A stretch of 64,000 nt of DNA from a bacterium (GTDB taxonomy: Bacteria > Patescibacteriota > Patescibacteriia > UBA9934), in the NCBI GenBank assembly GCA_027592325.1, contig JAQCKO010000005.1:202-64201 (forward strand). Reading direction: 5' to 3'. Made by a program: the position numbers and the translations under genes. The notes beneath the pieces are model-generated. The model made no database searches, had not been told where the DNA came from, and was given only the letters and a program-made list of their open reading frames with translations. Below are positions 1-19,119 of this stretch, in pieces. Each line of letters starts with the position of its first letter. Positions within the stretch are counted from its first letter, which is position 1.

Positions 1-1
1 T

Positions 2-259: not shown

Positions 260-264
260 TCGTG
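240..264 (-). terminator. Intrinsic terminator downstream of tRNA-fMet
   Basis: The hairpin gcacgac-cgta-gtcgtgc at 247-264 is followed on the minus strand by a T-run, seen as caaaaaa at 241-246. Confidence 0.6.
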
Positions 265-270
265 CATCTT

Positions 271-347
<77 letters not shown>

Positions 348-384
348 AAAAGAGAGTACATGAAATAATCAAAATCGTCAACGT

Positions 385-2415: not shown

Positions 2416-2547
2416 ATTAGAGACCTACGTACAACGCTTCAAAATAAGCCACGAATAAAGTCCGGTTAGAACAACCATTGTGACAATTCCAATCGTATAG
2501 CCTTCTTGATGCTTCATAATCTTTTCTATTTTATCACGCCACGTTTT

Positions 2548-2581
2548 CAAAAAAACAAAAACAGAGCAAAAACGCTCTGGG
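2548..2581 (-). terminator. Intrinsic terminator after tRNA-Leu
   Basis: In minus sense the hairpin cagagc-guuuuu-gcucug is followed by a long U-run. Confidence 0.6.
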
Positions 2582-2668
2582 TGGTGCCGCGGGAGGGACT
2601 CGAACCCTCAAGCCCGTGAAGGCAACGAATTTTGAGTCCGTCGCGTATACCAGTTCCGCCACCGCGGC
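2582..2668 (-). tRNA. tRNA-Leu (anticodon CAA), class II with a long variable arm
   Basis: The 87-nt gene has acceptor GCCGCGG/CCGCGGC and an anticodon loop CTCAAAA, with a long variable arm and a CCA end. Confidence 0.85.
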
Positions 2669-3044
2669 ATTGGACGGAAGAATAAAGGGAAATAGATCCT
2701 TTGTCAACGCAGACTTGCCTTTTTCTCTGTTTTTCGATAGAATCTCGACACCAAAAGGACGAAAACGAAGACAAATCGATTAGATCCTTCGACGCATTAC
2801 GTTCGCTCAGGATAATGATATGATTTGAGCTAATGTTCTTTGCTTCTGTACAAGGAAGACAGGTAACGATACTATATTGAATGGAAATTTTTGGTCTCCT
2901 GCGAGGATCATCGTCTGGTATGATCATTGCGCAGGATTTTTCTTCCAGGAATGGTGCATAACGAGCTGCGGAGTAAGACGTATATAGATATACGTTGTCG
3001 AGCGGCGCAGCTATAAACTATTCCTGGGGGAAAAAGACAAGCAA

Positions 3045-3121
3045 GGCTGGGTAGCTCAGTTGGTTAGAGCGTGGGACTCATAAGCCCGAGGTCGAGGGTT
3101 CGACCCCCTCCCCAGCCACCA
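3045..3121 (+). tRNA. tRNA with CAT anticodon, elongator Met type (or Ile2-lysidine)
   Basis: The sequence GGCTGGGTAGCTCAGTTGGTTAGAGC...CTCATAA...GGTTCGACCCCCTCCCCAGCCACCA is close to elongator tRNA-Met architecture. Confidence 0.8.
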
Positions 3122-3125
3122 AGAG

Positions 3126-3149
3126 GAACCGATCAACTCGGTTCTTTTT
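3126..3149 (+). terminator. Intrinsic terminator after tRNA-Met
   Basis: The hairpin gaaccg-atcaact-cggttc is followed by ttttt. Confidence 0.7.
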
Positions 3150-3209
3150 GTTTGCAAAGCAAAGAGGAGCCCCGAAGGACTCCCCACGAATGTACCACGC
3201 TGGCACATG

Positions 3210-3617
3210 TCAGTTATGCACGAGCTGCCACTGGCGCCAACCGGTTGCGTGAACCTTGACCTCTACCCATTGACCCGCAAGATCTTTAGCCAATCTCATC
3301 ATGGTTTCATGCTCAACAAAGCTCCCGTCCCCGCCCATGACGAACTTGCTTTCTCGCGACTCCCCCTTTCCGACGTCGATCATGTACATCCTACCCCCTT
3401 TAACCATGGACAAGGAAGCAAGATGCGGATGCACGCTATCAAAGCTGACAAGAAGCAGATCATCCGTTTTGTAGTTGAAGGGTTCAGGCTTTTCCCCGAT
3501 CGGATACATGACGAGGTCTGATCCATTGTCATACGGACCTCCCGTCAAATAGATTTTCACGTCACACCCCCTTGGCAAGTGACGATGCATTTTAACATGC
3601 GAAACGGCTAGTGTCAA
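3210..3617 (-). CDS. Hypothetical protein, possibly a nucleoside 2-deoxyribosyltransferase-like fold
   Basis: The 135-aa ORF has a 4-nt ATGA overlap with the upstream gene. The motif KIYLTGGPYDNGSD...DLLLVSFD recalls the IYxAGP motif of the NDT/Rcl family. The match is weak. Confidence 0.35.
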   Translation of the reverse strand: MTLAVSHVKMHRHLPRGCDVKIYLTGGPYDNGSDLVMYPIGEKPEPFNYKTDDLLLVSFDSVHPHLASLSMVKGGRMYMIDVGKGESRESKFVMGGDGSFVEHETMMRLAKDLAGQWVEVKVHATGWRQWQLVHN

Positions 3618-4117
3618 CTGAGCAATGCTTCAAACCCTGCGGAAAGTCCGTAAACCAAAATGGCTGCAATCAGGAGACCAGTGAGAATTGCCGGCGCCGC
3701 GTATTTAAAGGGAATTTTGAGCGCAACGGCTGCAAACGTTGCCGTCCATAGGCCAGTTAGCGGGAGCGGGAGCGCCGTAAAGAGCGCGAGCGCAATCGAA
3801 CCATAGCGTTCGTAATTCTGTGCAAGTTTTGCGCGTGCGGAATCGAGCCTTGCGTCAATGACACGATGTAAAAAAGGAATCCGATGTTCAAGATCGTGTC
3901 GCAAATGATCAAGTCCAAAATAAAGGGGAGCAAGCGGAAGCGCGCCTCCTATCAGCCCCATAAGTAAAATAACGAGCGCGGGCAAATCGGTAAAGGCAAT
4001 TCCAAATGGAATACCTGCGCGAATTTCAAATAGTGGAAGTGCTGAAATAAGCCCAACGGCAATAGCGGGAGCTGAATCGGCTAGATTAGAAAAGGGGATC
4101 TCCATACCCGATGTCAT
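3614..4117 (-). CDS. Small polytopic membrane protein (COG2426 / small multidrug-export-like)
   Basis: It is hydrophobic and multi-TM (MEIPFSNLADSAPAIAVGLISALPLFEIRAGIPFGIAF...). The likely start is an internal Met, which reduces the overlap with dacA. Confidence 0.45.
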   Translation of the reverse strand: MTSGMEIPFSNLADSAPAIAVGLISALPLFEIRAGIPFGIAFTDLPALVILLMGLIGGALPLAPLYFGLDHLRHDLEHRIPFLHRVIDARLDSARAKLAQNYERYGSIALALFTALPLPLTGLWTATFAAVALKIPFKYAAPAILTGLLIAAILVYGLSAGFEALLS

Positions 4118-5069
4118 TTGGCCACCGATGCACACGAAAGGCCCACAGCCCAAGACCCGCAATATCGGCCGCACGCGCTTCGGTTGATTCTGCTCCAAGC
4201 GTCACAATATGCAAACGATTCCCATTGTGCTCCACCGTCGAGGCAAGCACATATCCAGCAAGTGGCAAAAACCCCGTCTTTCCAACGAGCATGTCATATT
4301 CACCTCTATTTACTGGAAGCTGAAGGGCTAAATTCGTGTTCTCAATTTCAATCGTTCTTCCACTTCGCTGCCGGATGATAACCGATTCTGCGGTCGTCCA
4401 TCTTGCAATCACCGGCACCTCCCCTGCTGCCTTCAGAAGCTTAACCAAGTCATGCGCCGTTGAAATATTCTGGCTGTCAACACCAGTAACATCGGTAAAC
4501 TGACTCAATATCATTCCAAGTTCTGTGGCTTTTTCATTCATGCGCGCGATAAATTCTTCTTCCGTCATGCCAGAGAATCGCATCAGCGCTTTCGTGGCCG
4601 TATTATCAGATCCTACCAAACTCGCCGCAAGCACATCTCCCAATTGTAGCGCATCATTAAACGCCAAATACACCCGACCGCCAAGGACCATATCTTCTTC
4701 CTGAAGGGTCACAAAATCGGCGACATTCGGATTCTGCTCCATGAACACAAGCGCGGTCATCAGCTTCGTGACGCTCCCAATGGACCGAATTTGATGGGGT
4801 TGCTCCCCCCAAAGCATATCCCCAGATGCGTCATCAATCACAATGCTGCTAAATCCGCTTGTCACAATTCCATAAGAATTCAGGTCTATTTTCTCCGGCG
4901 CTGCTACAGCCTCTCCACTTTCAGCATCCTCTGAAACTCCAACATATGCCGATGCTTCTACCGGCCGATACTCACCCGTCGCGCGCATTTCCATCACTGC
5001 TCCATCAACAGGAAAGAGCTGAAAGAGCGCCGCGCTCGTCATAATGCTTGCAAGAATTTTCAACATCAA
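4086..5069 (-). CDS. dacA: D-alanyl-D-alanine carboxypeptidase (S11, PBP5-like)
   Basis: It has a signal peptide plus the SxxK motif (SVTKLMT), the SDN motif and the KTG motif. Confidence 0.85.
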   Translation of the reverse strand: MMLKILASIMTSAALFQLFPVDGAVMEMRATGEYRPVEASAYVGVSEDAESGEAVAAPEKIDLNSYGIVTSGFSSIVIDDASGDMLWGEQPHQIRSIGSVTKLMTALVFMEQNPNVADFVTLQEEDMVLGGRVYLAFNDALQLGDVLAASLVGSDNTATKALMRFSGMTEEEFIARMNEKATELGMILSQFTDVTGVDSQNISTAHDLVKLLKAAGEVPVIARWTTAESVIIRQRSGRTIEIENTNLALQLPVNRGEYDMLVGKTGFLPLAGYVLASTVEHNGNRLHIVTLGAESTEARAADIAGLGLWAFRVHRWPNDIGYGDPLF

Positions 5070-5602
5070 CCTGATTTTACCATGTCTGAAAGAGATGTTT
5101 CTTCATGCAAGCGATCATAATCCGGCAGTTCTTTCGCACTTCCAAGACCAAGGTGCTGAAGCATATCTGCAGAAATTGTATATACGGTATGAAGATGATC
5201 GGCAGATTCGGTTTCATCAACCATACCGCGCATAAGCAAATTACGCAGAATCATACTCGAATTCACGCCGCGAATATGTTCAAGTTCCGGTTTCGTGATT
5301 GGACCTCGGTAGGCAATAATCGTCAGCGTTTCGAGCTGCGGCTTTGTAAGGCTGGACTCGTCATCGTCTTTTTTACCTGTCTCGATGAGTTCAGCATAGG
5401 CGGGATTCGTAACAAGTTTTAAGCCGGCTTCTGTTTCAATCAAATGAAGACCTGAATCACCAGATCGGGCATGACCTAGGGCATTCACAGCATCAGAAAA
5501 TTCGTCATTCGTCACATCAAGTTGGTGCTGTAAACGCGATTTCTGAACCTCACCCCCTGCGACATAAAGAAGGGCTTCTAATTGTGCGGCATACTTATTC
5601 AT
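5066..5602 (-). CDS. scpB: Segregation and condensation protein B
   Basis: ScpB winged-helix motifs are present (LEALLYVAGGEV, ETLTIIAYRGPITKPELEHIRGV). It has a 4-nt overlap with scpA. Confidence 0.85.
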   Translation of the reverse strand: MNKYAAQLEALLYVAGGEVQKSRLQHQLDVTNDEFSDAVNALGHARSGDSGLHLIETEAGLKLVTNPAYAELIETGKKDDDESSLTKPQLETLTIIAYRGPITKPELEHIRGVNSSMILRNLLMRGMVDETESADHLHTVYTISADMLQHLGLGSAKELPDYDRLHEETSLSDMVKSG

Positions 5603-6300
5603 ACACGAATGATTTCAATGTCTTCTTGTTGTTGACGAACACGGACGATTTGTTTTTTTACAAGTTCTAGGAGTGCAAGGAAACTTACCACAACATCTGC
5701 TTTCGAGCTCGCTCCTCTTGCGATGTCACGAAAACCAATCGTGCGGCGTTTTTGAAGCGTTTTTTGTAATCGCTTCATGCGCTCCTCTACCGATTCTATC
5801 CGTTCCATGGATCGCTTTTGCAGCGAGAAAAATGGTTCAAGTTTTTTAAGAAGGCTTAAAAATGATTCGCGCAGTGAGGATTCTGTCACATTCTTCGCCG
5901 GAGCGAATCGGCGCTCTTCTTCACTCGATTCCAGCTTCATGTGTTTCTCGCGGGCATATGCACGATTCGGTGAATGATAAAGTGCAAGAAATGTTTGAGA
6001 TGCGTCCTGAAATTGCTTATAGACCTCAAGCTGTTCTTTTAGATCTTCAATGCCTTCCTCTTCTTCCTCAATACGTAAGTATGGCAAGAGCTCGCGGCTT
6101 TTGAGGTAAATCAATCTACTCGCTGTGAGCAAAAAGTCTGCCCGCGCTGAAACTTCCGCCGGATGCGCCTCTAAATACGCCAAATAGTCATCGGTAATCT
6201 TCGCAAGGGCAATATCGGTAATCGATAATTTCTTGTCATTCAGAAGATCCAAAAGCAATTCCAGCGGCCCTGAAAATTGTTCCTGCTCGGTAGTGAACAT
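5599..6300 (-). CDS. scpA: Segregation and condensation protein A
   Basis: The N-terminus LELLLDLLNDKKLSITDIALAKITDDYLAYLE is typical of ScpA. Confidence 0.85.
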   Translation of the reverse strand: MFTTEQEQFSGPLELLLDLLNDKKLSITDIALAKITDDYLAYLEAHPAEVSARADFLLTASRLIYLKSRELLPYLRIEEEEEGIEDLKEQLEVYKQFQDASQTFLALYHSPNRAYAREKHMKLESSEEERRFAPAKNVTESSLRESFLSLLKKLEPFFSLQKRSMERIESVEERMKRLQKTLQKRRTIGFRDIARGASSKADVVVSFLALLELVKKQIVRVRQQQEDIEIIRV

Positions 6301-6344
6301 GGACGTATTTTAGCGCAAAACTAGGAAAAACAAAAACCCGCGCG

Positions 6345-6372
6345 AGGCGGATTTTTTTTCGAGCTGGGCGCA
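6345..6372. terminator. Hairpin plus T8/A-run, bidirectional terminator-like
   Basis: The motif aaaaacccgcgcgaggcggatttttttt lies between scpA and aspS. Confidence 0.4.
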
Positions 6373-6525
6373 GATATTGTCCACTTCATCTTCTGATGAT
6401 CGCTCCTAGATCTCTCACATGCGTTCCCGGCGGAGTCACGGCGGAGCCGGACGGGCCGGGCAAGCGGGAATTTACAAATTCCGGTCTGCCCTGCTCTGCC
6501 GGGAACGCAGTGAAGGATGTATTCA

Positions 6526-7968
6526 TCAACTATTATCCTCACCCTTCATCTCATCAATCGCCTGCTTTGCTTCATCGTCAAGCTTCAAATGCAAATCCAT
6601 GAGCACAGTGTCTGGCATTGGCGATGGCGCATTCATCATCAAATCTTTTGCATGACCATCTTTCGGGAAGGCAATCACCTCACGAATATTCGGCTCCCCC
6701 ATCATAAGCATGACAATGCGATCAATTCCAGGCGCAAATCCTCCGTGCGGCGGCGCACCGAATTCAAATGCCTCAAGCATATGTGCAAACTTTCTTTGTT
6801 GCTCTTCTTCTGAAATTTGAAGCAAATCGAAAATACGCTTTTGCATATCGCGCTCATGAATTCTAATTGAACCTGAGCTAAGCTCGTATCCGTTTAGAAC
6901 GAGGTCATAGGCATTTGCGCGAATTGAGAGCAAATCTTCGCCTTTCATGAGCTTCTCTTTATCTTCTTCTTTCACGCTACAGAATGGATGGTGCTGCGCT
7001 TGAATGCTGCCATCCTCTAGCCGTTCAAACATTGGGAAATCAACAATCCAGCAAAAAGCGAGCTCATTTGGGTCGTTTTTATCTTCCCGGAGGTCAGGCT
7101 TATCGGTTCCGTATTTTTCCATGGCTTCCGCATAGGTCATGCGTACAAATGGTGAAGAGGCAATCTTCTTTTCTGGATACAGCTCCGTAACCAGCTGAAC
7201 AAACATCTTCTCTGTGTACTGAAGTACATCCTCCTGCGTCACAAACGACATTTCAAAGTCAAGCTGAGTAAACTCTGGCTGACGATCCCCTCGAAGGTCT
7301 TCGTCACGCATACAACGCGCAATCTGGAAATAGCGCTCAAATCCAGCCACCATAGAAAGCTGCTTGAATTGCTGAGGAGACTGCGGGAGTGCGTAAAATT
7401 GCCCAGGATGAATACGTGATGGCACAAGATATTCGCGCGATCCTTCCGGCGTTCCCTTCATCATCATCGGAGTTTCAATTTCGATGAATTCGTTGTTATG
7501 CATGTATGATCGAAAGAACGTGATAATACGATCACGTTCACGAATATTTCTTTGCATCCGCGCACTGCGAAGGTCGAGATAGCGATACTTGAGGCGAAGC
7601 TCTTCATTAATTTCTGTCGTGTCTTTGTCGATTTCAAATGGCGGAGTTTTTGCCTTATTCAAAATCTTCATCGATGTCGCAAGAAGCTCAACCGTTCCTG
7701 TGGTGATATTCGTATTGATCTGCCGCTCTCCACGCGCTTGCACAACTCCTTCAACCTCAACAACAAATTCGCTGCGAAGCTCTTTTGCGCGTTCCATATC
7801 GTCTCCAAGATCGCTTGGAACGCAAACGATTTGCAGAAGTCCGTCTTTGTCGCGAAGGTCAAAAAACATCACCTTCCCCATATCGCGGCGGGCATGCACC
7901 CAACCAGCAACTTTGACGGTTTCTCCTACTTTTTCTACGGTCTCTTTGGTAAAAATGCGTGTATTCAT
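6526..7968 (-). CDS. aspS: Aspartyl-tRNA synthetase, bacterial-type but lacking the GAD insertion domain (~481 aa)
   Basis: The LPQSPQQFKQ motif, the class II motifs and an N-terminal OB fold are present. The start is taken at MNTRIF, an internal Met of the track ORF. Confidence 0.85.
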   Translation of the reverse strand: MNTRIFTKETVEKVGETVKVAGWVHARRDMGKVMFFDLRDKDGLLQIVCVPSDLGDDMERAKELRSEFVVEVEGVVQARGERQINTNITTGTVELLATSMKILNKAKTPPFEIDKDTTEINEELRLKYRYLDLRSARMQRNIRERDRIITFFRSYMHNNEFIEIETPMMMKGTPEGSREYLVPSRIHPGQFYALPQSPQQFKQLSMVAGFERYFQIARCMRDEDLRGDRQPEFTQLDFEMSFVTQEDVLQYTEKMFVQLVTELYPEKKIASSPFVRMTYAEAMEKYGTDKPDLREDKNDPNELAFCWIVDFPMFERLEDGSIQAQHHPFCSVKEEDKEKLMKGEDLLSIRANAYDLVLNGYELSSGSIRIHERDMQKRIFDLLQISEEEQQRKFAHMLEAFEFGAPPHGGFAPGIDRIVMLMMGEPNIREVIAFPKDGHAKDLMMNAPSPMPDTVLMDLHLKLDDEAKQAIDEMKGEDNS

Positions 7969-8017
7969 ACGGCTATAGATAGGCGAAATGTAACAGTTTA
8001 AGGGGTACTTGGCAAGA

Positions 8018-8788
8018 TTACACGAGTACTCCTTCCCAGTAAGGGGCGCGAAAATACCCTGGCACGTGCATTGCAACAAGATCCTGAATACATTTTGTGT
8101 ATTGCTTCACAATTGTTCGGTCCGCTGTAAGGACAAACATATCCTCATATGTAAGCTGCTGCGCCGCTTGCATCAAATCGAGCACCCTCAAATCAATACG
8201 CTCAGCTGTAAACCAGCGATGCCGATCTTTATTGCGACAATCGGCACAGACAACCCCGCCATAAGCAGGATGCCAGAATGGATCATTTCCGGACGTACGA
8301 CAGCTCGTGCAATGCTCAAATTCAATATCGTAACCAAGATGCGACATGAGGCGCAATAGTAGTCCTCCGTACAACAAGAGACGCTCACGGCGCGGAATTT
8401 CGCCTGCGCCGTCAAGAAAATTGAGCCAGGCTTCAAGCTCGGGATAAATAGCATCACGGCCACCAAGTTCCTGCAATGCACGATCTAAAAATGCGCAGCT
8501 TGAACTTGCCAAAAGGCGTGCATCAAAGGAACGATGTAGTCCGGAAAGACGTTGTTTGAGCTCCGCAGAAATAATCGTCATGTAGCGTCGTCCTTGAACG
8601 ACTTCAAGCGAAAGAATACGGAACGGCTCTAGTTGCGGCGCAAGTTTCGCCATACCTTTTTGTGCACCACGACCAATCACATCAATTTTTCCAAGGTCTG
8701 GTGTTAAAATTCGATAACGCCGATCTGACTCACGAAAAGGTGATACGGTAAGTACGATTCCAGTTGTTTTAATTGAAGACCAGGCCAT
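8018..8788 (-). CDS. recO: DNA repair protein RecO
   Basis: It has an N-terminal OB fold and the C-terminal zinc-finger motif CTSC...CADC. Confidence 0.8.
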   Translation of the reverse strand: MAWSSIKTTGIVLTVSPFRESDRRYRILTPDLGKIDVIGRGAQKGMAKLAPQLEPFRILSLEVVQGRRYMTIISAELKQRLSGLHRSFDARLLASSSCAFLDRALQELGGRDAIYPELEAWLNFLDGAGEIPRRERLLLYGGLLLRLMSHLGYDIEFEHCTSCRTSGNDPFWHPAYGGVVCADCRNKDRHRWFTAERIDLRVLDLMQAAQQLTYEDMFVLTADRTIVKQYTKCIQDLVAMHVPGYFRAPYWEGVLV

Positions 8789-8813
8789 TTAGGTTTTACA
8801 TTCTATGATGGAA

Positions 8814-8920
8814 TAGTACAGCTTACCTCATCTAGCGTCTCAGATCTGCGATACTCGCTCGACGTACGTTCTAGTACGCCTCGCTCTGTTTCTTGATCTT
8901 CACCACCATCTAAAGCAGTC
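8814..8920 (+). repeat. Copy 1 of the intergenic repeat family (plus orientation)
   Basis: TAGTACAGCTTACCTCATCTAGCGTCTCAGATCTGCGATACTCGCTCGACGTACG...TCTAAAGCA aligns base-for-base with the copy at 52400-52510. Confidence 0.8.
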
Positions 8921-8934
8921 TATACGATTCGCTA

Positions 8935-9324
8935 TTAACTCTCATCCAAATACGATTGCAGTATCAACATCGCTGCAAGGGCATCCTCGGGTGCGGTTGC
9001 TCCATACTCTTCTACTAGTCGCCGACTTTCTGCCGTCGTAAATTGCTCATCAACGGTATGAATGGGCATATTGCTCATCCCTTTTAGTTCTTCAATAAAC
9101 CCACGCACCCTCTTTGCCTGCGAGTCATCATGAAAGTCTCCTGCCTCTCCTGGGACACCGATGACGAGTTCATCAATGCCTTCTTCGCGGACAAGATCGA
9201 TAATGCGCTTTGCAAGATCATCGCCGCCTGGAATCACCTCAAGCGGCGTCGCAAGCTTGGTCTCATTATCCCCAAGCGCGAGGCCAACTTTCTTCTCCCC
9301 AAAATCGACTCCTAAATAACGCAT
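8935..9324 (-). CDS. ruvX: Putative pre-16S rRNA nuclease / Holliday-junction-resolvase-like YqgF
   Basis: MRYLGVDFGEKKVGLALGD...ELVIGVP has the RNase H fold. Confidence 0.85.
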   Translation of the reverse strand: MRYLGVDFGEKKVGLALGDNETKLATPLEVIPGGDDLAKRIIDLVREEGIDELVIGVPGEAGDFHDDSQAKRVRGFIEELKGMSNMPIHTVDEQFTTAESRRLVEEYGATAPEDALAAMLILQSYLDES

Positions 9325-9325
9325 A

Positions 9326-9772
9326 TTATTCTACTGGCTCACCAATGAAGACAAAATCTTCGCGCACCACTTCTTCTCCTACAACTCCTGCTCGATCATC
9401 GCTATAATCAAGGACTCCATCACCGTTATCAACGCGGATTAGTGCGGCATAGCTACTCCCAAGCTCCATACGCTCATCAAGATTAATGACAAGATTTTCG
9501 TGCACACCAGGTTCAAGATAGATCGATGCGCCAATTGGCTCAGACGGAGCAATGCTGAGCATGTTATGAATACTCACAAATCCTCCCGCAGAAAGGCTCA
9601 CCGAAGCGATTGCGGTATAACCATCCCCTGCTTGATCAGCAAGAGTGAGAGAGGCAGATTCAAGCATGTTTATGCGTGGTTCTTCCGGACCTGGACCAGA
9701 AAAAAACATCAAGACACCAATAACAATAATGGTAATGAGAGAAAGAATAATAAGGCCGATATCGTGTTTCAT
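9326..9772 (-). CDS. Hypothetical membrane-anchored or secreted protein
   Basis: The start is taken at MKHDIGLIILSLITIIVIGVLMF, which supplies an N-terminal TM segment. The rest has no recognisable domain. Confidence 0.5.
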   Translation of the reverse strand: MKHDIGLIILSLITIIVIGVLMFFSGPGPEEPRINMLESASLTLADQAGDGYTAIASVSLSAGGFVSIHNMLSIAPSEPIGASIYLEPGVHENLVINLDERMELGSSYAALIRVDNGDGVLDYSDDRAGVVGEEVVREDFVFIGEPVE

Positions 9773-9826
9773 ACATTGGAAATATAGCAAATACTTGCGT
9801 TTCTGCACATACTTCATCAACATTAT

Positions 9827-9855
9827 TTGACGCCGCAACATAACCTCGCTAGGAT
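9827..9855 (+). promoter_or_regulatory. Sigma70-like promoter (TTGACG-17-TAGGAT)
   Basis: The -35 element TTGACG is at 9827-9832. A 17-nt spacer separates it from the -10 element TAGGAT at 9850-9855. Confidence 0.4.
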
Positions 9856-9898
9856 TTACGTGTCCCGCAATCCCGCGGGTCATTACCAAGGAGTGCCC

Positions 9899-9991
9899 AT
9901 GAACGGACTCACCTTGTCCAATGCGCCACCCGGCTGGCGCGAGTCCGGAAACATCCACTCCACCCGTTGCCCTGCCAATAACTACGGTTAG
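9899..9991 (+). CDS. Orphan 30-codon ORF with a consensus Shine-Dalgarno (MNGLTLSNAPPGWRESGNIHSTRCPANNYG)
   Basis: AAGGAG at 9888-9893 lies 5 nt before the ATG. The ORF sits in a 360-nt gap between minus-strand genes, bracketed by a plus-strand promoter and terminator. It could instead be a structured sRNA. Confidence 0.35.
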   Translation: MNGLTLSNAPPGWRESGNIHSTRCPANNYG

Positions 9992-10081
9992 TTTTGAGAG
10001 TGCCATCATCGCAACACCCGGCTCGCGTCATGCGCTTGAGCAACATCTAGAGGGTGCCTTCTAAGTAGAAGCGCACCTCGG

Positions 10082-10116
10082 CGCCCTGACCATAGGTTAG
10101 GGCGTTTTCTTTTTTT
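10082..10116 (+). terminator. Strong intrinsic terminator (plus strand)
   Basis: The hairpin cgccctgacc-ata-ggttagggcg is 10 bp with one G:U pair and is followed by TTTTCTTTTTTT. Confidence 0.75.
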
Positions 10117-10134
10117 GACGTAGTAATGAATACC

Positions 10135-10923
10135 CTAAATCTGAACCTCGGGTTGTGGCGTGAGAATCTCGGGACCTTTTTCGGTAATCGCTATCGTTAC
10201 CTCAAAATGCGCTGCATGCTTTCCATCGACAGTCACAATTGTCCAGCCGTCATCGGCTTCCTGTACTTTATGCGTTCCAAGCGTAATCATTGGCTCGATG
10301 GCAATACACATACCGACCGCTAACGTACTGTCGCCAAAACGTTTTGCCCGATAATTGGGAATATTTGGGGGTTCATGCACAGCGTGGCCAACGCCGTGAC
10401 CAACAAGCGCCTTGACAATCCCGTACGTTTTTTGATCGATCGCATCTTCAACAGCGCCCGAGATATCGCTGACCATTTTCCCAGCAATCGCGGCATCCAC
10501 GCCCGCATACATGCTCGCACGCGTATCCCGCATGAGCTTCAGATGCTCTTCACGTACATTCCCAACCGGCACGGTTACCGCCATATCGGTACACAGGTCT
10601 TTATACCAACAGCCAATATCAAGACCAACAATATCGCCTTCCTCTAAGGCAATATCACGTGTTCCAACACCGTGCACAACTTCATGATTACGCGAAATAC
10701 AGACCGTGGAAGGAAATGGAATCTGACCGCCACCCTTATAACCAAGAAATGAGGGCTTCCCGCCGCCCTCTTCAATCACGTTTTTTGCAATTGCATCGAG
10801 CTCATGCATTTTTACGCCAGGCTTCACTAAATCAATTGCCGCCTGTAATGCGCGCGAAAGAAGTGCACCGCCTTCACGCATGTACTGAATGTCTTGTGCT
10901 GTTTTGATATTCGCCATAAGCAT
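10135..10923 (-). CDS. map: Methionine aminopeptidase type I
   Basis: The HGVGHAVHEPP and metal-ligand motifs are present. Confidence 0.9.
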   Translation of the reverse strand: MLMANIKTAQDIQYMREGGALLSRALQAAIDLVKPGVKMHELDAIAKNVIEEGGGKPSFLGYKGGGQIPFPSTVCISRNHEVVHGVGTRDIALEEGDIVGLDIGCWYKDLCTDMAVTVPVGNVREEHLKLMRDTRASMYAGVDAAIAGKMVSDISGAVEDAIDQKTYGIVKALVGHGVGHAVHEPPNIPNYRAKRFGDSTLAVGMCIAIEPMITLGTHKVQEADDGWTIVTVDGKHAAHFEVTIAITEKGPEILTPQPEVQI

Positions 10924-10979
10924 TTGTAGAACCGTTAAGAATAATCGTATGTCGTGGAAAAAGAGAATGAGACAGTGAA

Positions 10980-11537
10980 CTATAGGTCAAGGGCAGCGGC
11001 GATGCGCGCCTGTACCTCTTCAACGGTCCCAAGACCATCAATTTCATGGACAATGCCAAGGTGTTTATATGCTTCAATGACAGGAGCCGTTTTTTCTTCG
11101 CTCCATTGCAATCGTTTCTCGAGCATTTCTGGCGTATCATCACTGCGACCTTCTTTTTCTGCTCGCAACATAATCCGCTTCACAGACTCTTCTTTTGCTG
11201 CGGTGATAACAAGTACATGTGAGGGACTCAGAAATGTTCTCGATGCTTCATACTGTTCAATGAAACGAGGATATCCATCAATAATAAAGCCATGCTTTGC
11301 ATCATCTTTGGCAAGTCGTTGCTTCAGAATATTAGACGTTATTTCGTCAGAAACAAGATTACCCGCATCTTGAATTGCGAGAATCTCTTTTCCAATATCA
11401 CTTCCGGTCGCACCTTCATCACGTAAGAGTTGCCCCATGGAAAGCGCGGGAATACCAAGCTTTTCTGCAATCATATTTGCTTGAGTGCCTTTTCCACTCC
11501 CTTGAGGGCCTAAAATCACAATTTGTTTCATAATCAA
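10980..11537 (-). CDS. adk: Adenylate kinase
   Basis: The P-loop is GPQGSGKGTQ and an LID region is present. Confidence 0.9.
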   Translation of the reverse strand: MIMKQIVILGPQGSGKGTQANMIAEKLGIPALSMGQLLRDEGATGSDIGKEILAIQDAGNLVSDEITSNILKQRLAKDDAKHGFIIDGYPRFIEQYEASRTFLSPSHVLVITAAKEESVKRIMLRAEKEGRSDDTPEMLEKRLQWSEEKTAPVIEAYKHLGIVHEIDGLGTVEEVQARIAAALDL

Positions 11538-11579
11538 TATTCAGCCGCACTATAACAAATTGACGGCTTTCCGCAACCA

Positions 11580-11608
11580 AAAACAGCCCGTATGGGACTG
11601 TTTTTGCC
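11580..11608. terminator. Hairpin with flanking T-runs between secY and adk
   Basis: aaaacagcccgtatgggactgttttt reads as a terminator on both strands. Confidence 0.45.
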
Positions 11609-11619
11609 ATGACTTGTTA

Positions 11620-11699
11620 AACGCCTCATGGCTGCCTTAGATAGTGGTGACGATCGGGGATCGGAGATTGGAGCCGCTAGATGAGGTAGGCTGAGGTGT
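11620..11699 (-). repeat. Copy 2 of the intergenic repeat family (minus orientation, internally shortened)
   Basis: In minus sense it reads CAGCCTACCTCATCTAGCGGCTCCAATCT...TCTAAGGCA, directly after the secY TAA stop. Confidence 0.65.
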
Positions 11700-12944
11700 T
11701 TAAGACTTATCGTATTCGCGCATGGTGACTTGCGCTTCCACCTGCTTCACGATATCAATCACAACTGCCACAATAATGAGAATAGATGCTCCACCGACAA
11801 GAAGACTTTGACTTCCTGTCACTTCCTGCACAACAAGTGGCAATACGGCAATCGCTCCAAGAAAACCTGCTCCAACGAGCAAAATACGATTCTTCACCCA
11901 CTCAAGGTAGGTTGCTGTTTGTGTTCCTGGTCGAATTCCTGGAATGAATCCTCCTTGTTTTTGCAAATTCTCCGCAATTTGTTCCGGCTTGAAGATGACA
12001 CCCGCATAGAAGAAGGTGAATCCGAACACTAATGCAAAGTAAAGGATGGCATAGAAGGCACTGTTCCCAAAGAGTTCAATGACCCATCGCGCCGTATTTT
12101 GAAGGAATTCTGAACGTGCATCTAAGAAGTATTGTGCAATAAGTGGAGGGAAAATCATCACAGAAATCGAGAAGATAATAGGGATCATTCCACCCATGCT
12201 CACGCGTACAGGAAGCACCGAGCTTGACTGCATGCCTGCACCACCACGCGCATACTTGATGGCAATATTGCGCTGCCCTTCATTAACAATCACAACCGAA
12301 ACAATCGTGACGATGGTGAGGGCAATGAAGAGAATGATGTCAAAAAGATCATTTCGTGTGTACGTCGCAAGTGTTTGCTGCACGAAGGTTGGAAATCCTG
12401 CAATAATACCCGCCAGAATGAGAATCGAGATTCCATTTCCGACTCCACGCTCGGTAATCAACTCACCAATCCACATAAGGAACATTGTTCCAGCGGTCAT
12501 TGCGATGAGTGCGGCGACTATTTCAAGCCCTACAAGATCAATACTGACGCCACCTTGTGTGATGAGCGTAAGCACACCGTATCCTTGAACCAGAGCGAGC
12601 GGTACTACCGCGAAGCGCGTCCAGCGATTCAATTTCTGACGACCCTGTTCTTCTTTCTGCATTTCTTCTACGCTTGGGAAAATCATTCCAAGCAGCTGAA
12701 CAATGATTGACGCCGTAATATACGGAGCAACACCGAGCGCCACAACGGAAAGATTCGCTAGCGTTCCGCCAGAGAACACATTCAATAGCCCTAGGAATTG
12801 ATTACCAGCGAGAAGACCTGTGAGGTCCGTCTGGTCAATTCCAGGAATGGTGATATGTGCCGCGAGGCGGAAAATGGTGAGGGCTCCTAGAATAGCTAAA
12901 AGGCTATTACGAAGTTCGGTCATTTTCCAAATTCTCGCTAACAT
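11700..12944 (-). CDS. secY: Preprotein translocase SecY
   Basis: It is a 10-TM protein with conserved SecY motifs. Confidence 0.95.
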   Translation of the reverse strand: MLARIWKMTELRNSLLAILGALTIFRLAAHITIPGIDQTDLTGLLAGNQFLGLLNVFSGGTLANLSVVALGVAPYITASIIVQLLGMIFPSVEEMQKEEQGRQKLNRWTRFAVVPLALVQGYGVLTLITQGGVSIDLVGLEIVAALIAMTAGTMFLMWIGELITERGVGNGISILILAGIIAGFPTFVQQTLATYTRNDLFDIILFIALTIVTIVSVVIVNEGQRNIAIKYARGGAGMQSSSVLPVRVSMGGMIPIIFSISVMIFPPLIAQYFLDARSEFLQNTARWVIELFGNSAFYAILYFALVFGFTFFYAGVIFKPEQIAENLQKQGGFIPGIRPGTQTATYLEWVKNRILLVGAGFLGAIAVLPLVVQEVTGSQSLLVGGASILIIVAVVIDIVKQVEAQVTMREYDKS

Positions 12945-12946
12945 AT

Positions 12947-13384
12947 CTATGCGTTAATCGTTCCGCCCGCAGCAGTGATTTTTTCTGAAGCTGCCTTAGA
13001 AACTTTGCATCCGCTCACTTTGAGAGAAACAGTCACTTCTCCATCTGAGAGGATTTTTACACCATTTTTCTTCGTCGCGATAAGATTTTTCGCTTTAAGC
13101 GTATCCGGGGATACCAATTCCCCCTTCAGAAACACAGCTGCTAAATCACCCACATTTACGGTTGCAGGTTTATTATACGGGGAATTGAATCCGCGGAGCT
13201 TTGGTGTTGCAAGCATAAGCTTACGCATTCCAAGCCGCTGAAATCCGCTTGCACCTGATCGTGATTTTTGTCCCTTCATTCCGCGTCCTGATGTCTTTCC
13301 AAGGGTTGATCCGATTCCGCGTCCAAGGCGTTTTTTTGTCTTTTTTGAGCCGCTTTTTGGGCTCAGATTATGTAATGACAACAT
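12947..13384 (-). CDS. rplO: 50S ribosomal protein L15
   Basis: The sequence is conserved. No L30 gene sits between rpsE and rplO. Confidence 0.9.
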   Translation of the reverse strand: MLSLHNLSPKSGSKKTKKRLGRGIGSTLGKTSGRGMKGQKSRSGASGFQRLGMRKLMLATPKLRGFNSPYNKPATVNVGDLAAVFLKGELVSPDTLKAKNLIATKKNGVKILSDGEVTVSLKVSGCKVSKAASEKITAAGGTINA

Positions 13385-13390
13385 AGGGCG

Positions 13391-14041
13391 TTATTCTGCT
13401 TTTTTGTCAGATGATTTTTGTCCCTTCTTCGCCTTTAGTAAAGGCGCTTCAGATGCCTGTACAGCCTTCGCTGGAGTTTTTACCTGCTTAGGCTTGCTCA
13501 CATTGTTCGTAACATTACGTAGGCCAGATAGTGCATGCATCATTGCCTTCGCATTGTTGATTTTGCTTTTTGAACCAAGAATTTTTGATACAACATTCGG
13601 TACACCAGCAAATTCAAGGACCATACGAGCAGGTCCCCCTGATTTAAGCCCAGTTCCTTTTGGAGCTGGCTTAAGCATCACCTGCGCCGCACCAAATTTC
13701 ATGTCAATTCTGTGCGGGATTGTTTCATTAACAATAGGCACGGTGATAAGATTTTTCTTAGCCTGTCGGAATGCTTTTTCTACTGCTGCCGCTACATCGG
13801 TTCCTTTTGCAACACCCATTCCAACACGTCCTTTTTTATCGCCAATGATAAGACACGTACGAAAACTCATCCGTTTTCCTCCTTTCGTAACACGCGTTAC
13901 ACGAGCAAGTTCCAAAATCTTTTGCTCGAACTCACGCGGTTCACGTTTTTCACGACGACCATTTCCCTTTCGGCGACGTACACGACGCTCACTTGCGCCC
14001 GTGAAGCTTTTATTATCTTGTGTTTTTGTTTCTTCCGGCAT
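13391..14041 (-). CDS. rpsE: 30S ribosomal protein S5, with an R/K-rich N-terminal extension
   Basis: S5 dsRBD and C-terminal domains are present. Confidence 0.9.
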   Translation of the reverse strand: MPEETKTQDNKSFTGASERRVRRRKGNGRREKREPREFEQKILELARVTRVTKGGKRMSFRTCLIIGDKKGRVGMGVAKGTDVAAAVEKAFRQAKKNLITVPIVNETIPHRIDMKFGAAQVMLKPAPKGTGLKSGGPARMVLEFAGVPNVVSKILGSKSKINNAKAMMHALSGLRNVTNNVSKPKQVKTPAKAVQASEAPLLKAKKGQKSSDKKAE

Positions 14042-14043
14042 AT

Positions 14044-14406
14044 TTAGAATTGAATTCCTTCACTTCGCACACCTTCCGCAAGCGCTTTCACACGTCCGTG
14101 ATAAAGGAATGATCCGCGATCGTAAATGGCAGTCGTTATACCCGCCGCCTTTAATTTCGCGCCAAGTTCTTTTCCAACAAGCTCGGCAATCTCTAGAGGA
14201 GTTTTTCCCTCTACCGCAATTGTTTTGTCGAAGGCGCTCGCAAGCGTGACACCTGCAGCGTCATCGATTGCCTGCACAGATATATGCTTCTTTGTGCGCG
14301 CAACGCTAAGACGAGGACGATCAGCCGTTCCTTGAATGCGTGAACGCGTCCGCCCAGCACGTCGGAGCTTTTGCGCACGTTTTTTGATGAGTGCTTTTTT
14401 ATCCAT
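14044..14406 (-). CDS. rplR: 50S ribosomal protein L18
   Basis: The sequence is conserved. Confidence 0.9.
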   Translation of the reverse strand: MDKKALIKKRAQKLRRAGRTRSRIQGTADRPRLSVARTKKHISVQAIDDAAGVTLASAFDKTIAVEGKTPLEIAELVGKELGAKLKAAGITTAIYDRGSFLYHGRVKALAEGVRSEGIQF

Positions 14407-14411
14407 AGAGA

Positions 14412-14972
14412 TTATTCACCTTTGGCAGCCTTACCAGCCTTACGCCGAATGACTTCATGGTCATATTTGAAGCCTTTTCCTTTGTATGGCTCTGGTTTCT
14501 TGAGTGATCGAATTTCTGCAGCGGTTTGCCCGATAAGCTGTTTATCAATGCTCGTCAGTGTGAGCTTCATCCCTTCAACCACTGCATCGACTGATGCAGG
14601 AAGTTCGTAACGAACCTCGTGCGAAAATCCTAGACTCATAACAAGGGTCTTTCCTTGAAGAGCCATTTTGAATCCAACACCGTTAAGCTCAAGAACCTTG
14701 GTCCATCCTTTCGTCACACCAGTCACCATATTTTGTATGAGTGCCCGATATGTTCCCCAAATTGCTGAGCTTCCTGTTTCGTGACGCGCAACATTCAAAA
14801 CTTTTTTCCCCTCTTCTGTTTCGGTTATTTCAACCTTGATCTCTGCTGGAATGGTGAGCGTCAACTCTCCTTTGCTTCCTTTTACCGTAAGCATATCAGC
14901 GTTTAACGCTGCTTCTGCTCCTTCAAAGAATACGGGTTTATTTCCAATGCGTGACATATTAGAAGAGTTCAC
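14412..14972 (-). CDS. rplF: 50S ribosomal protein L6
   Basis: The sequence is conserved. Confidence 0.9.
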   Translation of the reverse strand: MNSSNMSRIGNKPVFFEGAEAALNADMLTVKGSKGELTLTIPAEIKVEITETEEGKKVLNVARHETGSSAIWGTYRALIQNMVTGVTKGWTKVLELNGVGFKMALQGKTLVMSLGFSHEVRYELPASVDAVVEGMKLTLTSIDKQLIGQTAAEIRSLKKPEPYKGKGFKYDHEVIRRKAGKAAKGE

Positions 14973-15351
14973 AAATTAGCTCGCCACCGAGTCGACGCTT
15001 TTTTGCTTCTGTTCCTGTCATCATACCGTTTGGTGTCGACAGAATAGAAAGCCCAAAACCGTTTTGTACCGATTTAATTTCTGTTGCTTTCACATAAACG
15101 CGTCGCCCTGGCTTACTTACACGTTTCACGCTTGAGAATGCCGGAGTGCGTCCATCGTACTTGAGGTGCATGCGAATGACTGGTCGTTTCTGAACTTCTA
15201 CTGTTTCTACGCGTTCAACGTATCCTTCCTTTTCAAGAATTTTGCTGATCGCAAATTTAACTTTCGAGAGAGGTACGTCAACGGTTTCCTTGCGTACAGC
15301 AGTAGCGTTTCGGAGACGTGTCAGCATGTCTGAGATTGGGTCTGTAGTCAT
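14959..15351 (-). CDS. rpsH: 30S ribosomal protein S8
   Basis: The start is taken at MTTDPISDMLTRLRNA, an internal Met. Confidence 0.9.
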   Translation of the reverse strand: MTTDPISDMLTRLRNATAVRKETVDVPLSKVKFAISKILEKEGYVERVETVEVQKRPVIRMHLKYDGRTPAFSSVKRVSKPGRRVYVKATEIKSVQNGFGLSILSTPNGMMTGTEAKKRRLGGELICELF

Positions 15352-15355
15352 ATGC

Positions 15356-15541
15356 TTACCAGCTTGCTTTCTTAACACCTGGGATTTCTCCCTTATTTGC
15401 GAGTTCACGGAAGCAGATACGGCAAAGTCCGAAATCTCGCATAAAGTAACGGTTTCGCCCACAATGCCAACACCGATTCACCTTCCGGCTCATATACTTT
15501 GGCGTCTTGTGTGACTTCGCGATTTGATTCTTTGTCGCCAT
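15356..15541 (-). CDS. rpsN: 30S ribosomal protein S14, zinc-binding type Z (61 aa)
   Basis: It carries the CxxC...CxxC zinc motif. Confidence 0.9.
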
Positions 15542-15543
15542 AT

Positions 15544-16086
15544 TTATTTATCTGACTTCTTAAATGGGAACCCCAGCGCTTCAAAGAGTGCCATACCTTC
15601 TTCCTTTGTTTCAGCGGACGTTTTGACCGTCACCTGAAGTCCGTGAATTTGATCTACGGCATCTGGACTGACTTCAGGAAATGCAAGATGTTCCTTAAAT
15701 CCGAAGTTGAAGTTTCCTGAACGATCAACAGTTGAGCGTTCAATACCGCGGAAGTCACGAATACGTGGAAATGTGACATTCACGAGCTTGTCGAGGAAGT
15801 CCCACATACGCTCGCCGCGGAGCGTAACCATTGCACCAACAACTTGTCCTTCACGGATTTTGAAGCCCGCTTCTGACTTACGAGCTTTGGTAATCACAGG
15901 CTTTTGACCAGAGATGAGCTCTAGTGTATCTGTAAGAATTTCGATGAATTTAGAATCTTTCTTCGCTGAAAGACGGGTATTCACCGTTACCTTTTCGATT
16001 TTTGGTACAGCATGCACATTCTTCACTCCAAGTGAATCCTGGAGTGCCTTTGCCGCTGTATCTTTGTAGAGGGTTTTAAGTGACAT
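15544..16086 (-). CDS. rplE: 50S ribosomal protein L5
   Basis: The sequence is conserved. Confidence 0.9.
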
Positions 16087-16093
16087 ACCTTTC

Positions 16094-16411
16094 TTAGTTC
16101 AAATCTTCTACACCTGTTTTTGTACGAAGAACGCGCACTTTCACTTGTTTTTCATCTTTTTCAATGAATTTGTATCCAATACGTCCTTCGCTATCGGTTC
16201 CGATAACGCGTACGTTTGATACGTGAAGTGGTGCATCGAATTCTACACGTTGCCCTTTTTCTCCTCCGCGAGCCTTCAGATGCTTAACTGCTTTATTTAC
16301 TCCTTCTACAACTACAGTATTCGCATCTTTAAGAACCTGGACAACTTTTCCAGTTTTCCCTTTCTCTTTTCCGGCGATCACGCGTACATTGTCGTTTACC
16401 TTTATCTTCAT
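16094..16411 (-). CDS. rplX: 50S ribosomal protein L24
   Basis: MKIKVNDNVRVIAGKEKGKTG contains a KOW domain. Confidence 0.9.
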   Translation of the reverse strand: MKIKVNDNVRVIAGKEKGKTGKVVQVLKDANTVVVEGVNKAVKHLKARGGEKGQRVEFDAPLHVSNVRVIGTDSEGRIGYKFIEKDEKQVKVRVLRTKTGVEDLN

Positions 16412-16419
16412 ACACGTCA

Positions 16420-16791
16420 TTAAAGCACCTCAGGAGCGAGTGAAACGATTTTTGAAAATCCAGCTGCACGAAGTTCACGCGCAACAGGTCCAAAAATACG
16501 TGTCCCCTTTGGCTCATTATTTTTACGATCGATGATTACCGCCGCATTTTCGTCAAAACGAATATACGATCCATCTGCGCGACGAGTTTCTTTGCGGGTT
16601 CGAACAATAACCGCATGCACAACGTCACTCTTTTTTACTGCATTATGTGGAGCTGCTTCTTTTACAACTGCCGTTACAATATCTCCAATACCTGCATTAC
16701 GCTTTTGATACCCACCAAGCACGCGAATAACCTTGAGTCGCTTTGCGCCGGTATTATCGGCTGACATGAGAACTGATTCATTCTGTACCAT
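16420..16791 (-). CDS. rplN: 50S ribosomal protein L14
   Basis: The sequence is conserved. Confidence 0.9.
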
Positions 16792-16799
16792 ATCCTAGG

Positions 16800-17057
16800 T
16801 TAGGCAATCTTACTTACAACGCGCCAAGTTTTAGACTTTGCGAGCGGTCGTGTTTCTTCAATGATAACCTTATCACCAGCCTTGTACGCATTCTCTTCAT
16901 CATGCGCCTTGTATTTTTTGCTGAGCGAAAACCGCTTAAGATACTTTGGGTGCTGGTGCGCGCGATCAACACGAACAACGACGGTTTTATCCATCTTGTC
17001 AGACACCACCACGCCATTTAGGCGTCGGCGTTTTAATTGTGTTTTTGTTTCTGACAT
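16800..17057 (-). CDS. rpsQ: 30S ribosomal protein S17
   Basis: The sequence is conserved. Confidence 0.9.
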
Positions 17058-17058
17058 A

Positions 17059-17259
17059 TTATTCGGTTTGAGCATTATTAAGCTCGGTAATGCGCGTCTT
17101 TATGCGTGCGATTTCTTTTCGAATTACTCCAAAAAGATGATTTTGCTTTAGCTGACCAATTGAATCCTTCGTTCGAAGGTTATAGAGCTCTGCTCGTTTC
17201 TCCTCGATCATCCCTTCAAGCTCTTCGATGGTTTTCTTTTCAAGATCTTTATATTCCAT
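17059..17259 (-). CDS. rpmC: 50S ribosomal protein L29
   Basis: The sequence is conserved. Confidence 0.85.
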
Positions 17260-17261
17260 AC

Positions 17262-17672
17262 TTAGCGTGAGATGAATTTTGTTTTCACGGGTAGCTTATG
17301 CATCGCGAGACGAAATGCTTCACGCGCCTGATCTTCCGTTACTCCGTCAATTTCGAACAGGATTGATCCAGCACGTACCGGCGACATGTAATAGTCAACG
17401 TTTCCTTTACCTTTACCCATCGGGGCTTCGGCTCCATGGCTTGTGACTGGTTTATGTGGAAAAACGCGAACCCATATTTTTCCTCCACGCTTTACAGAAC
17501 GCGTCATCGCTCGACGAGCGGCTTCAATTTGGCGAGCCGTCACCCAGCTTTCTGTCATTGCTTTCATTCCATACGACCCAAATGCAAGGTCTGTTTTACG
17601 TGTTGCAACGCGATCACCTTTCGTACGGCGCTTATGCTGTTTGCGCCACTTCAGCTTTTTTGGCATCAACAT
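17262..17672 (-). CDS. rplP: 50S ribosomal protein L16
   Basis: The sequence is conserved. Confidence 0.9.
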   Translation of the reverse strand: MLMPKKLKWRKQHKRRTKGDRVATRKTDLAFGSYGMKAMTESWVTARQIEAARRAMTRSVKRGGKIWVRVFPHKPVTSHGAEAPMGKGKGNVDYYMSPVRAGSILFEIDGVTEDQAREAFRLAMHKLPVKTKFISR

Positions 17673-17678
17673 ATACGC

Positions 17679-18383: not shown

Positions 18384-18384
18384 A

Positions 18385-18846: not shown

Positions 18847-18849
18847 ATC

Positions 18850-19116
18850 CTATGATTTATCCTTTCCGGAATGTTTGACAAACTTTCGTGTTTTTGCGAA
18901 TTCACCCAGCTTGTGGCCAACCATATTTTCCACTACACGAACTTGAATAAATTCACGCCCATTGTGAACACCAAAGGTGAATCCAACCATTTCTGGTGTA
19001 ATGTCTGAGCTGCGAGCCCATGTTTTAATCACGGACTTGTCGCCAGCAGAAAGTTTTGAAACTTTCTTGGCAAGCTTCGCGTCTACGTAAGGTCCTTTTT
19101 TGAGACTTCGTGACAT
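18850..19116 (-). CDS. rpsS: 30S ribosomal protein S19
   Basis: The sequence is conserved. Confidence 0.9.
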
Positions 19117-19119
19117 ACC

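Follow-up and report, generated by a model that had tools for sequence, protein, structure and literature searches.

The window analyzed here is a stretch of 64,000 nt (contig JAQCKO010000005.1 of assembly GCA_027592325.1, positions 202 to 64,201) from a genome of Candidatus Uhrbacteria, in the Candidate Phyla Radiation (CPR, or Patescibacteria). On its plus strand, in the gap that follows the gene of the methionine aminopeptidase Map, we found a unit that we interpret, with moderate confidence, as a gene for an independently transcribed, non-coding, and structured small RNA (sRNA) of about 255 nt. As expected from a stand-alone structured sRNA gene, the unit has in silico its own promoter and terminator, a strand-specific fold, and structural elements that are kept in a relative. 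A preliminary description of the stretch had singled out this region as a discrete plus-strand unit. This agrees with our comparison of two species, where the promoter, the 5' hairpin, the core domain, and the terminator are all conserved.

Promoter, terminator, and predicted transcript

We infer that the unit is transcribed from 9860 to 10116 on the plus strand, the interval bounded by a promoter and an intrinsic terminator. A sequence scan identified a promoter of the sigma-70 type, TTGACG-17-TAGGAT, at 9827-9855 (plus strand), as the preliminary description had it, with a predicted transcription start at around 9860-9862. The two hexamers and their 17-nt spacing are kept in the relatives presented below, and the sequence of the spacer has diverged: the equivalent site reads TTGACG-17-TAGGCT in the closest relative (locus L086), TTGACA-17-TACTAT in L113, and TTGACA-17-TAGGAT in L115. 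Elsewhere in the window, a near-consensus TTGACA-17-TATTCT (2707-2679, minus strand) ends 11 nt before a tRNA-Leu gene (2668-2582), a sign that this CPR organism makes use of canonical promoters of the sigma-70 type.

The terminator (10080-10116, plus strand) was identified by a terminator scan and comprises a 12-bp stem (10080-10106) followed by a run of T up to 10116. It had been described as strong, and it ranks first among the terminator-like sites in positions 1-20000. When it is compared with L086, 6 of the 11 comparable pairs differ and all of them still pair, five by way of G·U pairs and one because both of its bases changed. Since these G·U pairs work on the plus strand only, they fix the strand of the unit as plus. 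The z-score of folding is -3.69 for the plus strand of the predicted transcript vs -1.61 for the minus strand, and it is -4.20 for the homologue in L086. The interior had also been noted as GC-rich: the unit has 57-61% G+C, vs 47% for the window. A transcription attenuator with a leader peptide was considered and rejected, because what follows the terminator, in both the window and L086, is map, which is encoded on the opposite strand and reached from its 3' end.

Conservation and predicted fold of the candidate RNA

A protein search revealed one closer relative (P0002), with a Map protein 87% identical, whose contigs L084-L086 carry a clear homologue of the RNA. The locus of the window is also present, in identical form, in GCA_027621985.1 and in two metagenome contigs. 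In L086 the homologue lies on the strand convergent with map, and it has kept the promoter hexamers and their spacing, the 5' hairpin, AAGGAGTGCCCATGA, the reading frame, the hairpin H3, and the terminator. The preliminary description had suggested a comparison with related genomes, and the structure is conserved there in one other species, from the promoter through the terminator.

Beyond L084-L086, blastn and nhmmer searches against 80 GTDB loci around map revealed no further homologues. A covariance model of the 5' domain (R1, filters off) gave no match in L113, in L115, in seven other relatives, or in the rest of the window, and no second copy of the unit was found in the window or in the fetched loci. 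A metagenome scan with AAGGAGTGCCCATGANCGG returned, among the matches listed (at least 26 loci), only ordinary chance matches to a Shine-Dalgarno (SD) sequence with an ATG, and two viral scans for homologues of the RNA had no match. When used as protein queries, the sense frame of 54/56 aa matched nothing and the spurious antisense open reading frame (ORF) described below matched only the ORF of L086 itself.

The folds of the window and L086 sequences share one 5' architecture, made of the elements H1 and H2, which we delimited from the fold and the comparison with L086. H1 is a 5'-terminal hairpin (9862-9881, plus strand) with the stem CCCGC/GCGGG at 9864-9879 and the loop AAUCCC, which is wholly unpaired in the predicted ensemble. 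Its stem is the same in L086 and the sole change is one loop base, from U to G. H2 is a core domain of 72 nt (9890-9961, plus strand) with four stacked helices, GGAGUG/CACUCC, AUG/CAU, CGGACUC/GAGUCCG, and GCGCC/GGCGC. Its 21 pairs are all invariant between the window and L086, and all substitutions fall in the internal and apical loops, which are variable. Taken together, the 26 pairs of H1 and H2 are intact and identical in both species: none of the 54 paired sites of this 5' domain has changed, vs 16 of the 46 unpaired sites (Fisher p = 7e-7). Further downstream, the minimum free energy (MFE) structure has two more hairpins on the plus strand, H3 (GCUC-GCGU...GCGC-GAGC, 10021-10041) and H4 (10052-10078). 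L086 keeps H3, where a C-G replaces one U·G and the loop differs. At the position of H4, L086 has a hairpin of similar size and different sequence, so that no pair-by-pair comparison is possible.

Coding potential of the 30-codon ORF

An ORF had been described in the unit, and all its elements are present: AAGGAG at 9888-9893, a spacing of 5 nt, an ATG at 9899, and 30 codons (9899-9991, plus strand, with the stop TAG at 9989-9991) that encode MNGLTLSNAPPGWRESGNIHSTRCPANNYG. This ORF is embedded in H2 and, judging from the codon changes, is probably no functional coding sequence. Within the SD-like AAGGAG, GGAG provides the 5' side of the helix that closes H2 and pairs with CACUCC at 9956-9961. 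In the thermodynamic prediction for the full-transcript ensemble, the probability of being unpaired is 0.00-0.01 for GGAG and ~0.5 for the AUG. Hence, the accessible ribosome-binding site that one would expect from a micro-protein gene is not seen in the predicted ensemble.

In L086 the ORF, which differs by an in-frame indel of 6 nt, is 32 codons long and ends at the same TAG. The changes between the window and L086 at codon positions 1:2:3 are 6:7:8 in the ORF, vs 20:13:125 in map and 19:9:87 in adk, and the codon changes of the ORF comprise 6 synonymous and 10 non-synonymous ones. At the sites of the ORF outside the predicted helices, a hand count on the alignment gave 6/19, 7/19, and 8/19 changed positions (32-42%). 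The second position, where changes are always non-synonymous, is thus changing almost as fast as the third positions of map (125/261), which means that there is no detectable constraint on the amino acids. As a protein, then, the ORF does not appear to be conserved: the frame is kept in L086, without the third-position bias that purifying selection on a micro-protein would leave. We simulated the retention of the open frame and found a probability of 0.66 of having no premature stop, i.e., 0.22 once multiplied by 1/3 for an in-frame indel, and 0.07 when the same stop is required. Such retention is weakly unlikely by chance, and not remarkable. The peptide has no Pfam or NCBIfam family, and no homologue was found among 5.8 billion proteins.

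These results bear on the explanation that the unit is a small mRNA or a dual-function RNA, with a peptide of 30 aa (32 aa in the relative) translated when H2 opens. The consensus AAGGAG placed 5 nt before the AUG speaks for it, as do the frame, the in-frame indel, and the stop kept in L086, where 65% of the residues are identical. The invariance of the stems is also what one would expect if codons and pairing were constrained together. Yet, the changes are spread evenly over the codon positions and the second positions outside helices are near the neutral rate, the frame could have been retained by chance with the probabilities given above, GGAG is never unpaired in the predicted ensemble, and the peptide is not hydrophobic and lacks a family, a homologue, or a partner gene. 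Moreover, L113 has no ORF and L115 has just six codons after AAAGGAGG, a similar SD. We consider a translated product to be quite unlikely. The preliminary description had left the choice between a micro-protein, an sRNA, and a dual-function RNA. The sRNA is the best fit, with its invariant stems, nearly free loops, and pair-preserving terminator, and the micro-protein is disfavored by the codon pattern, the sequestered GGAG, and the lack of peptide homologues. With the GGAG of the SD in the closing helix and codons that show no constraint at the protein level, the molecule most likely works as an RNA in its own right, and does not serve as a messenger. We also considered and rejected a type I toxin-antitoxin system, since the peptide has no hydrophobic stretch and no minus-strand promoter is predicted inside the unit.

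The long-range helix and known RNA families

A long-range helix had been proposed in the interior of the unit. The complementary arms exist, with 11 pairs and one bulged U, and the positions need correction: they lie at 9937-9948 and 10018-10028, the first arm having been placed ~8 nt away. The helix itself does not survive the comparison, since its CCGG:CCGG part is lost in L086 and the local helices are preferred and conserved. The long-range fold is nearly isoenergetic with the MFE structure in the window (-92.0 vs -94.7 kcal/mol). In L086 the values are -89.5 vs -104.5 kcal/mol, and forcing the residual 8 bp of the helix costs 15 kcal/mol. The window copy has a 13-nt direct repeat, CACCCGGCTSGCG, present as CACCCGGCTGGCG (9927-9939) and CACCCGGCTCGCG (10015-10027), which is absent from L086 and which seems, in part, to account for much of the long-range complementarity in the window.

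The same helix is what suggests a highly divergent housekeeping RNA, i.e., RNase P RNA, signal recognition particle (SRP) RNA, 6S RNA, or transfer-messenger RNA (tmRNA). Bacterial RNase P RNAs are all known to keep the P4 helix (AGUCCGG / CCGGCU, where one U is bulged) as well as the regions CR-I to CR-V. The window can form a P4-like bulged-U helix (GAG-U-CCGG with CCGG-CUC) after AUCGCAACA, which resembles J2/4 of RNase P. A minimal RNase P RNA was suspected on these grounds (in the context GAGUCCGG/CCGGCUC) and rejected: L086 reads GAGUCCGAG / CACUGUGCUC at the putative P4 arms, so that the CCGG/CCGG core, universal in RNase P, is lost there, no model matches, and the arms are ~70 nt apart, which is too little for a specificity domain. 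SRP RNA and 6S RNA were rejected as well, because there is neither the GGAA/AGCA motif of SRP domain IV nor the end-to-end rod of 6S RNA, nor any Rfam match. The MFE and consensus folds consist of separate local domains and have no stem closing the 5' and 3' ends.

Searches with the models of Rfam 15 at the gathering thresholds identified only five tRNAs in the whole window. At E <=10, the region 9700-10200 gave only terminator-like or noise matches of <=24 bits, far under the cut-offs, and at E <=0.01 the homologue and the analogous loci gave none. ARAGORN found no tmRNA. The region thus matches no Rfam family, in line with the novelty initially put forward, and a housekeeping RNA is effectively refuted.

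Origin of the unit and its counterparts in sister lineages

Nothing similar to the unit follows map in the GTDB representatives whose Map is 50-73% identical. In most of these outgroups, the DUF7282 gene, which lies on the far side of the unit in the window, starts 3-15 nt after map or overlaps it. The exceptions also lack a homologue of the RNA: L007 and L002 have spacers of 38 nt and 115 nt, and an additional small ORF is present in L012 and L116. This ORF lies between map and the DUF7282 gene, on the strand of map (L116:2285-2494 and L012:~4790-4985). In L116 it is called as a gene of 69 aa that has no Pfam family, and the gap sequence of L012 is similar to it by eye. L116 also has a weak match to RVT_1 in an ORF of 135 aa upstream of adk.

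As the outgroups do not have the unit, we regard it as an insertion. It is carried by four lineages, which form one clade in the tree of Map with the sister pairs (window, L086) and (L113, L115), and the nearest outgroups are without it. The simplest history would be a single insertion (~360 nt) at the map/DUF7282 junction in the common ancestor of the clade. With such an insertion between two genes that were once coupled, the origin of the unit would be datable.

The lineages L113 and L115, with Map proteins 74% and 73% identical to that of the window, have gaps of 325-365 nt at exactly the same site. Their units (L113:1603-1927 and L115:1195-1559, on the minus strand of the loci) comprise a promoter, a structured body of ~250-300 nt, and an intrinsic terminator, and are convergent with map. 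The folding z-scores of the bodies are -4.7 (L113) and -2.6 (L115), vs -0.5 for the opposite strand of L115. Despite Map proteins that are 88% identical, the bodies of L113 and L115 have no collinear 7-mer past the -10 box, where conservation ends sharply. Local alignment with long gaps, compared with shuffled sequences, gave p = 0.03 for the window and L115 and was not significant for the other pairs. The collinear k-mers found among the units (CAAGGAG, CCGGAAA, CACTCCACC, and CCAATAA) are suggestive only. Going by these alignments, the promoter, the site, the orientation, and the function of the terminator appear common to the clade, and the constrained 5' domain appears specific to the lineage of the window and L086. 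If the units of the sister lineages are related, they would provide a natural example of rapid sRNA birth and turnover behind a conserved promoter.

One could also think that the main role of the unit is in cis, where a promoter directed against the highly expressed ribosomal-protein/secY-adk-map operon, together with stable hairpins, would uncouple DUF7282-ruvX-recO from map. Such a convergent insulator or antisense module would act through transcriptional interference and through base pairing with read-through transcripts, and the body itself would be of little importance. The map and DUF7282 genes abut or overlap in the outgroups, as in a coupled operon, and in all four lineages with the unit it comes directly after the stop codon of map and is convergent with it. 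The promoter and the terminator are kept in the four of them, with bodies in L113 and L115 that are related neither to one another nor to that of the window. From the layout of the locus, the RNA is bound to be complementary, over its whole length, to any read-through transcript. This explanation leaves the 54 invariant stem positions of the 5' domain unaccounted for, in the face of 35% of change in the loops. Furthermore, the DUF7282 gene does not adjoin the unit in L086, and the terminator hairpin has no U-tract on the minus strand, which makes it a poor terminator for map. We consider a main role in cis rather unlikely, though it is the leading alternative and fits the pattern seen across the clade.

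The unit might alternatively be a functionless relic: an inserted gene or mobile element in decay, of which the promoter and the terminator have survived by chance. Its restriction to one clade, its high G+C content relative to the genome, the unrelated bodies of the sister lineages, and the extra 67% G+C DNA with SD-led small ORFs that adjoins it in L086 would all fit. A relic is not expected, however, to show purifying selection patterned along a 5' domain or changes in a terminator that preserve pairing. No frame matches Pfam, no inverted repeats or convincing target duplications were found, and the window and the fetched loci have no second copy. We judge a relic very improbable. Two specific forms of it were considered and rejected: a MITE or repeated mobile element, given the lack of inverted repeats and the single copy in the window, and a pseudogene remnant, given that three-frame translations of all four bodies match no Pfam family. 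As for direct repeats, the flanks have only TTWTTTGACG (9/10), which is no more than expected by chance and which L086 lacks.

Proposed mode of action

The sRNA gene that we favor would have its function in the first ~105 nt, i.e., in H1 and the four-helix H2, with stems held invariant by selection. The 3' half would be a loosely constrained spacer of hairpins up to the terminator. The 5' domain may act in trans as a riboregulator that binds a protein or other RNAs, a possibility to which we give slightly less than an even chance. The recognized surface would then consist of rigid helices, including a sequestered mimic of a translation-initiation region. From the geometry of the locus, an effect in cis could be added, as the RNA would be antisense, over its whole length, to any transcript that continues from map into DUF7282-ruvX-recO.

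Several points weigh against a non-coding sRNA gene. The 9/12 match of the promoter is by itself at the level of chance (23 such sites per 20 kb, vs 26.7 expected in shuffled sequences). Only two species carry this RNA and the 5' domain has no compensatory pairs: it shows no covariation because no pair there varies. Its structure would thus rest on thermodynamics and on where the substitutions fall, and its invariant stems could also reflect a joint constraint on peptide and structure. The second species has also kept an SD of consensus sequence 5 nt ahead of the AUG, as well as the in-frame indel and the stop. Since the bodies of the sister lineages cannot be aligned, the property conserved at the locus might be transcription, and not a specific RNA. 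Finally, the search for trans targets within the window was uninformative, with 12 matches of >=11-nt complementarity vs 6.4 expected. None of them is on the mRNA strand at a start site or in the conserved part of the RNA.

A bolder reading takes the end of the operon as a conserved launch site, where RNA bodies are replaced or remodelled in each lineage behind one inherited outward promoter. In the lineage of the window and L086, the result would be a new riboregulator, possibly dual-function, whose domain mimicking SD and AUG binds the translation apparatus. We find this scenario doubtful. If true, it would be among the first regulatory RNAs defined in the CPR.

Neighboring genes and other gaps of the window

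The top matches of the Map protein of the window are in Uhrbacteria metagenome-assembled genomes. The genes around the unit are on the minus strand, in the order secY, adk, map, the gap, the DUF7282 gene, ruvX, recO, and aspS. A gap of about 360 nt between two minus-strand genes had been described, and it is present at 9773-10134 (362 nt), between the ATG of the DUF7282 gene (9772) and the stop codon of map (10135). The map gene (10135-10923, minus strand) and the RNA converge, with the stop codon of map 18 nt past the T-run of the terminator. The DUF7282 gene (9326-9772, minus strand) encodes a membrane-anchored protein of 148 aa, as defined from Pfam and from the alignment of homologues. Public gene calls extend it to 10009, giving 226-227 aa in three records that include GCA_027621985.1, and in the over-long call of 227 aa the Pfam domain covers residues 119-205. 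The five homologues (150-160 aa) all begin at the methionine encoded at 9772. We thus regard the N-terminal extension of 79 codons (9773-10009, minus strand), which runs antisense through the candidate RNA gene, as an artefact of choosing the longest ORF. This false extension covers the locus and hides it in the public annotation.

In L086, the place of the DUF7282 gene upstream of the unit is taken by a stretch of 67% G+C (L086:1236-1550, on the minus strand), in a genome of ~48%. Strong SDs precede its two small ORFs, one of 52 aa (MRKLIGGDVV...) and one of 36 aa, and a terminator hairpin is also present. The stretch matches nothing that we fetched, and the contig ends there. This stretch may be foreign DNA or an assembly chimera.

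Other gaps of the window have features of their own. The gap at 23984-24452 (469 nt, 54% G+C) is upstream of the gene at 23564-23983, has no convincing ORF, and carries a minus-strand terminator-like hairpin at 24134-24118. Rfam gave no match at E <=1 for this gap, which could harbor a leader or a further small RNA. The gap at 38122-38566 (445 nt, 52% G+C) also has no convincing ORF and has a 14-bp minus-strand hairpin at 38339-38308. Within a gap of 387 nt (32479-32865), a GC-rich hairpin at 32827-32841 (CGCCC...GGGCG) with T-runs on both strands looks like a bidirectional terminator.

Comparison with known systems

Regulatory RNAs of the CPR are essentially uncharted, and we found no sRNA of CPR, Patescibacteria, Saccharibacteria, or Uhrbacteria described in the searchable literature. 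As it stands, the unit is one more lineage-specific sRNA candidate, known from two species. It offers a testable candidate with defined ends and a constrained core of 105 nt.

Among known RNAs, the similarity to RNase P RNA is limited to the long-range helix with a bulged U, comparable to P4, that the window copy can form. The unit differs from it by the lack of an Rfam match, of the regions CR-I to CR-V, and of an S-domain, and by a helix that is not conserved in the sole homologue. Type I toxin-antitoxin mRNAs and 5' structures that sequester the SD also have a short ORF and an SD locked in a stable helix of a structured small transcript. In contrast to them, the peptide here is hydrophilic and lacks a transmembrane segment, no antisense RNA gene overlaps the unit, and the search for further copies gave none.

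Dual-function sRNAs, such as SR1/SR1P of B. subtilis, SgrS/SgrT of E. coli, and RNAIII/hld of S. aureus, resemble the unit in that a structured RNA of the regulatory type has a short SD-led ORF, here retained in a relative. To our knowledge, the peptides of the known ones show amino-acid conservation, whereas the codons here have no coding signature and the SD is predicted to be fully sequestered.

The generic trans-acting sRNA genes found in intergenic regions are similar to the unit in their layout: they have a sigma-70-type promoter of their own, a stem-loop at the 5' end, a structured body, a terminator hairpin followed by a U-tail, and a size of 250 nt. They are also similar in their narrow phylogenetic range and their fast turnover between sister lineages. 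The unit is unlike them in that its conserved parts are helices, and not a single-stranded seed, and in that its host is a CPR bacterium. We present it as a candidate for a new, lineage-restricted small RNA gene, of the ordinary stand-alone bacterial type and outside the curated families.

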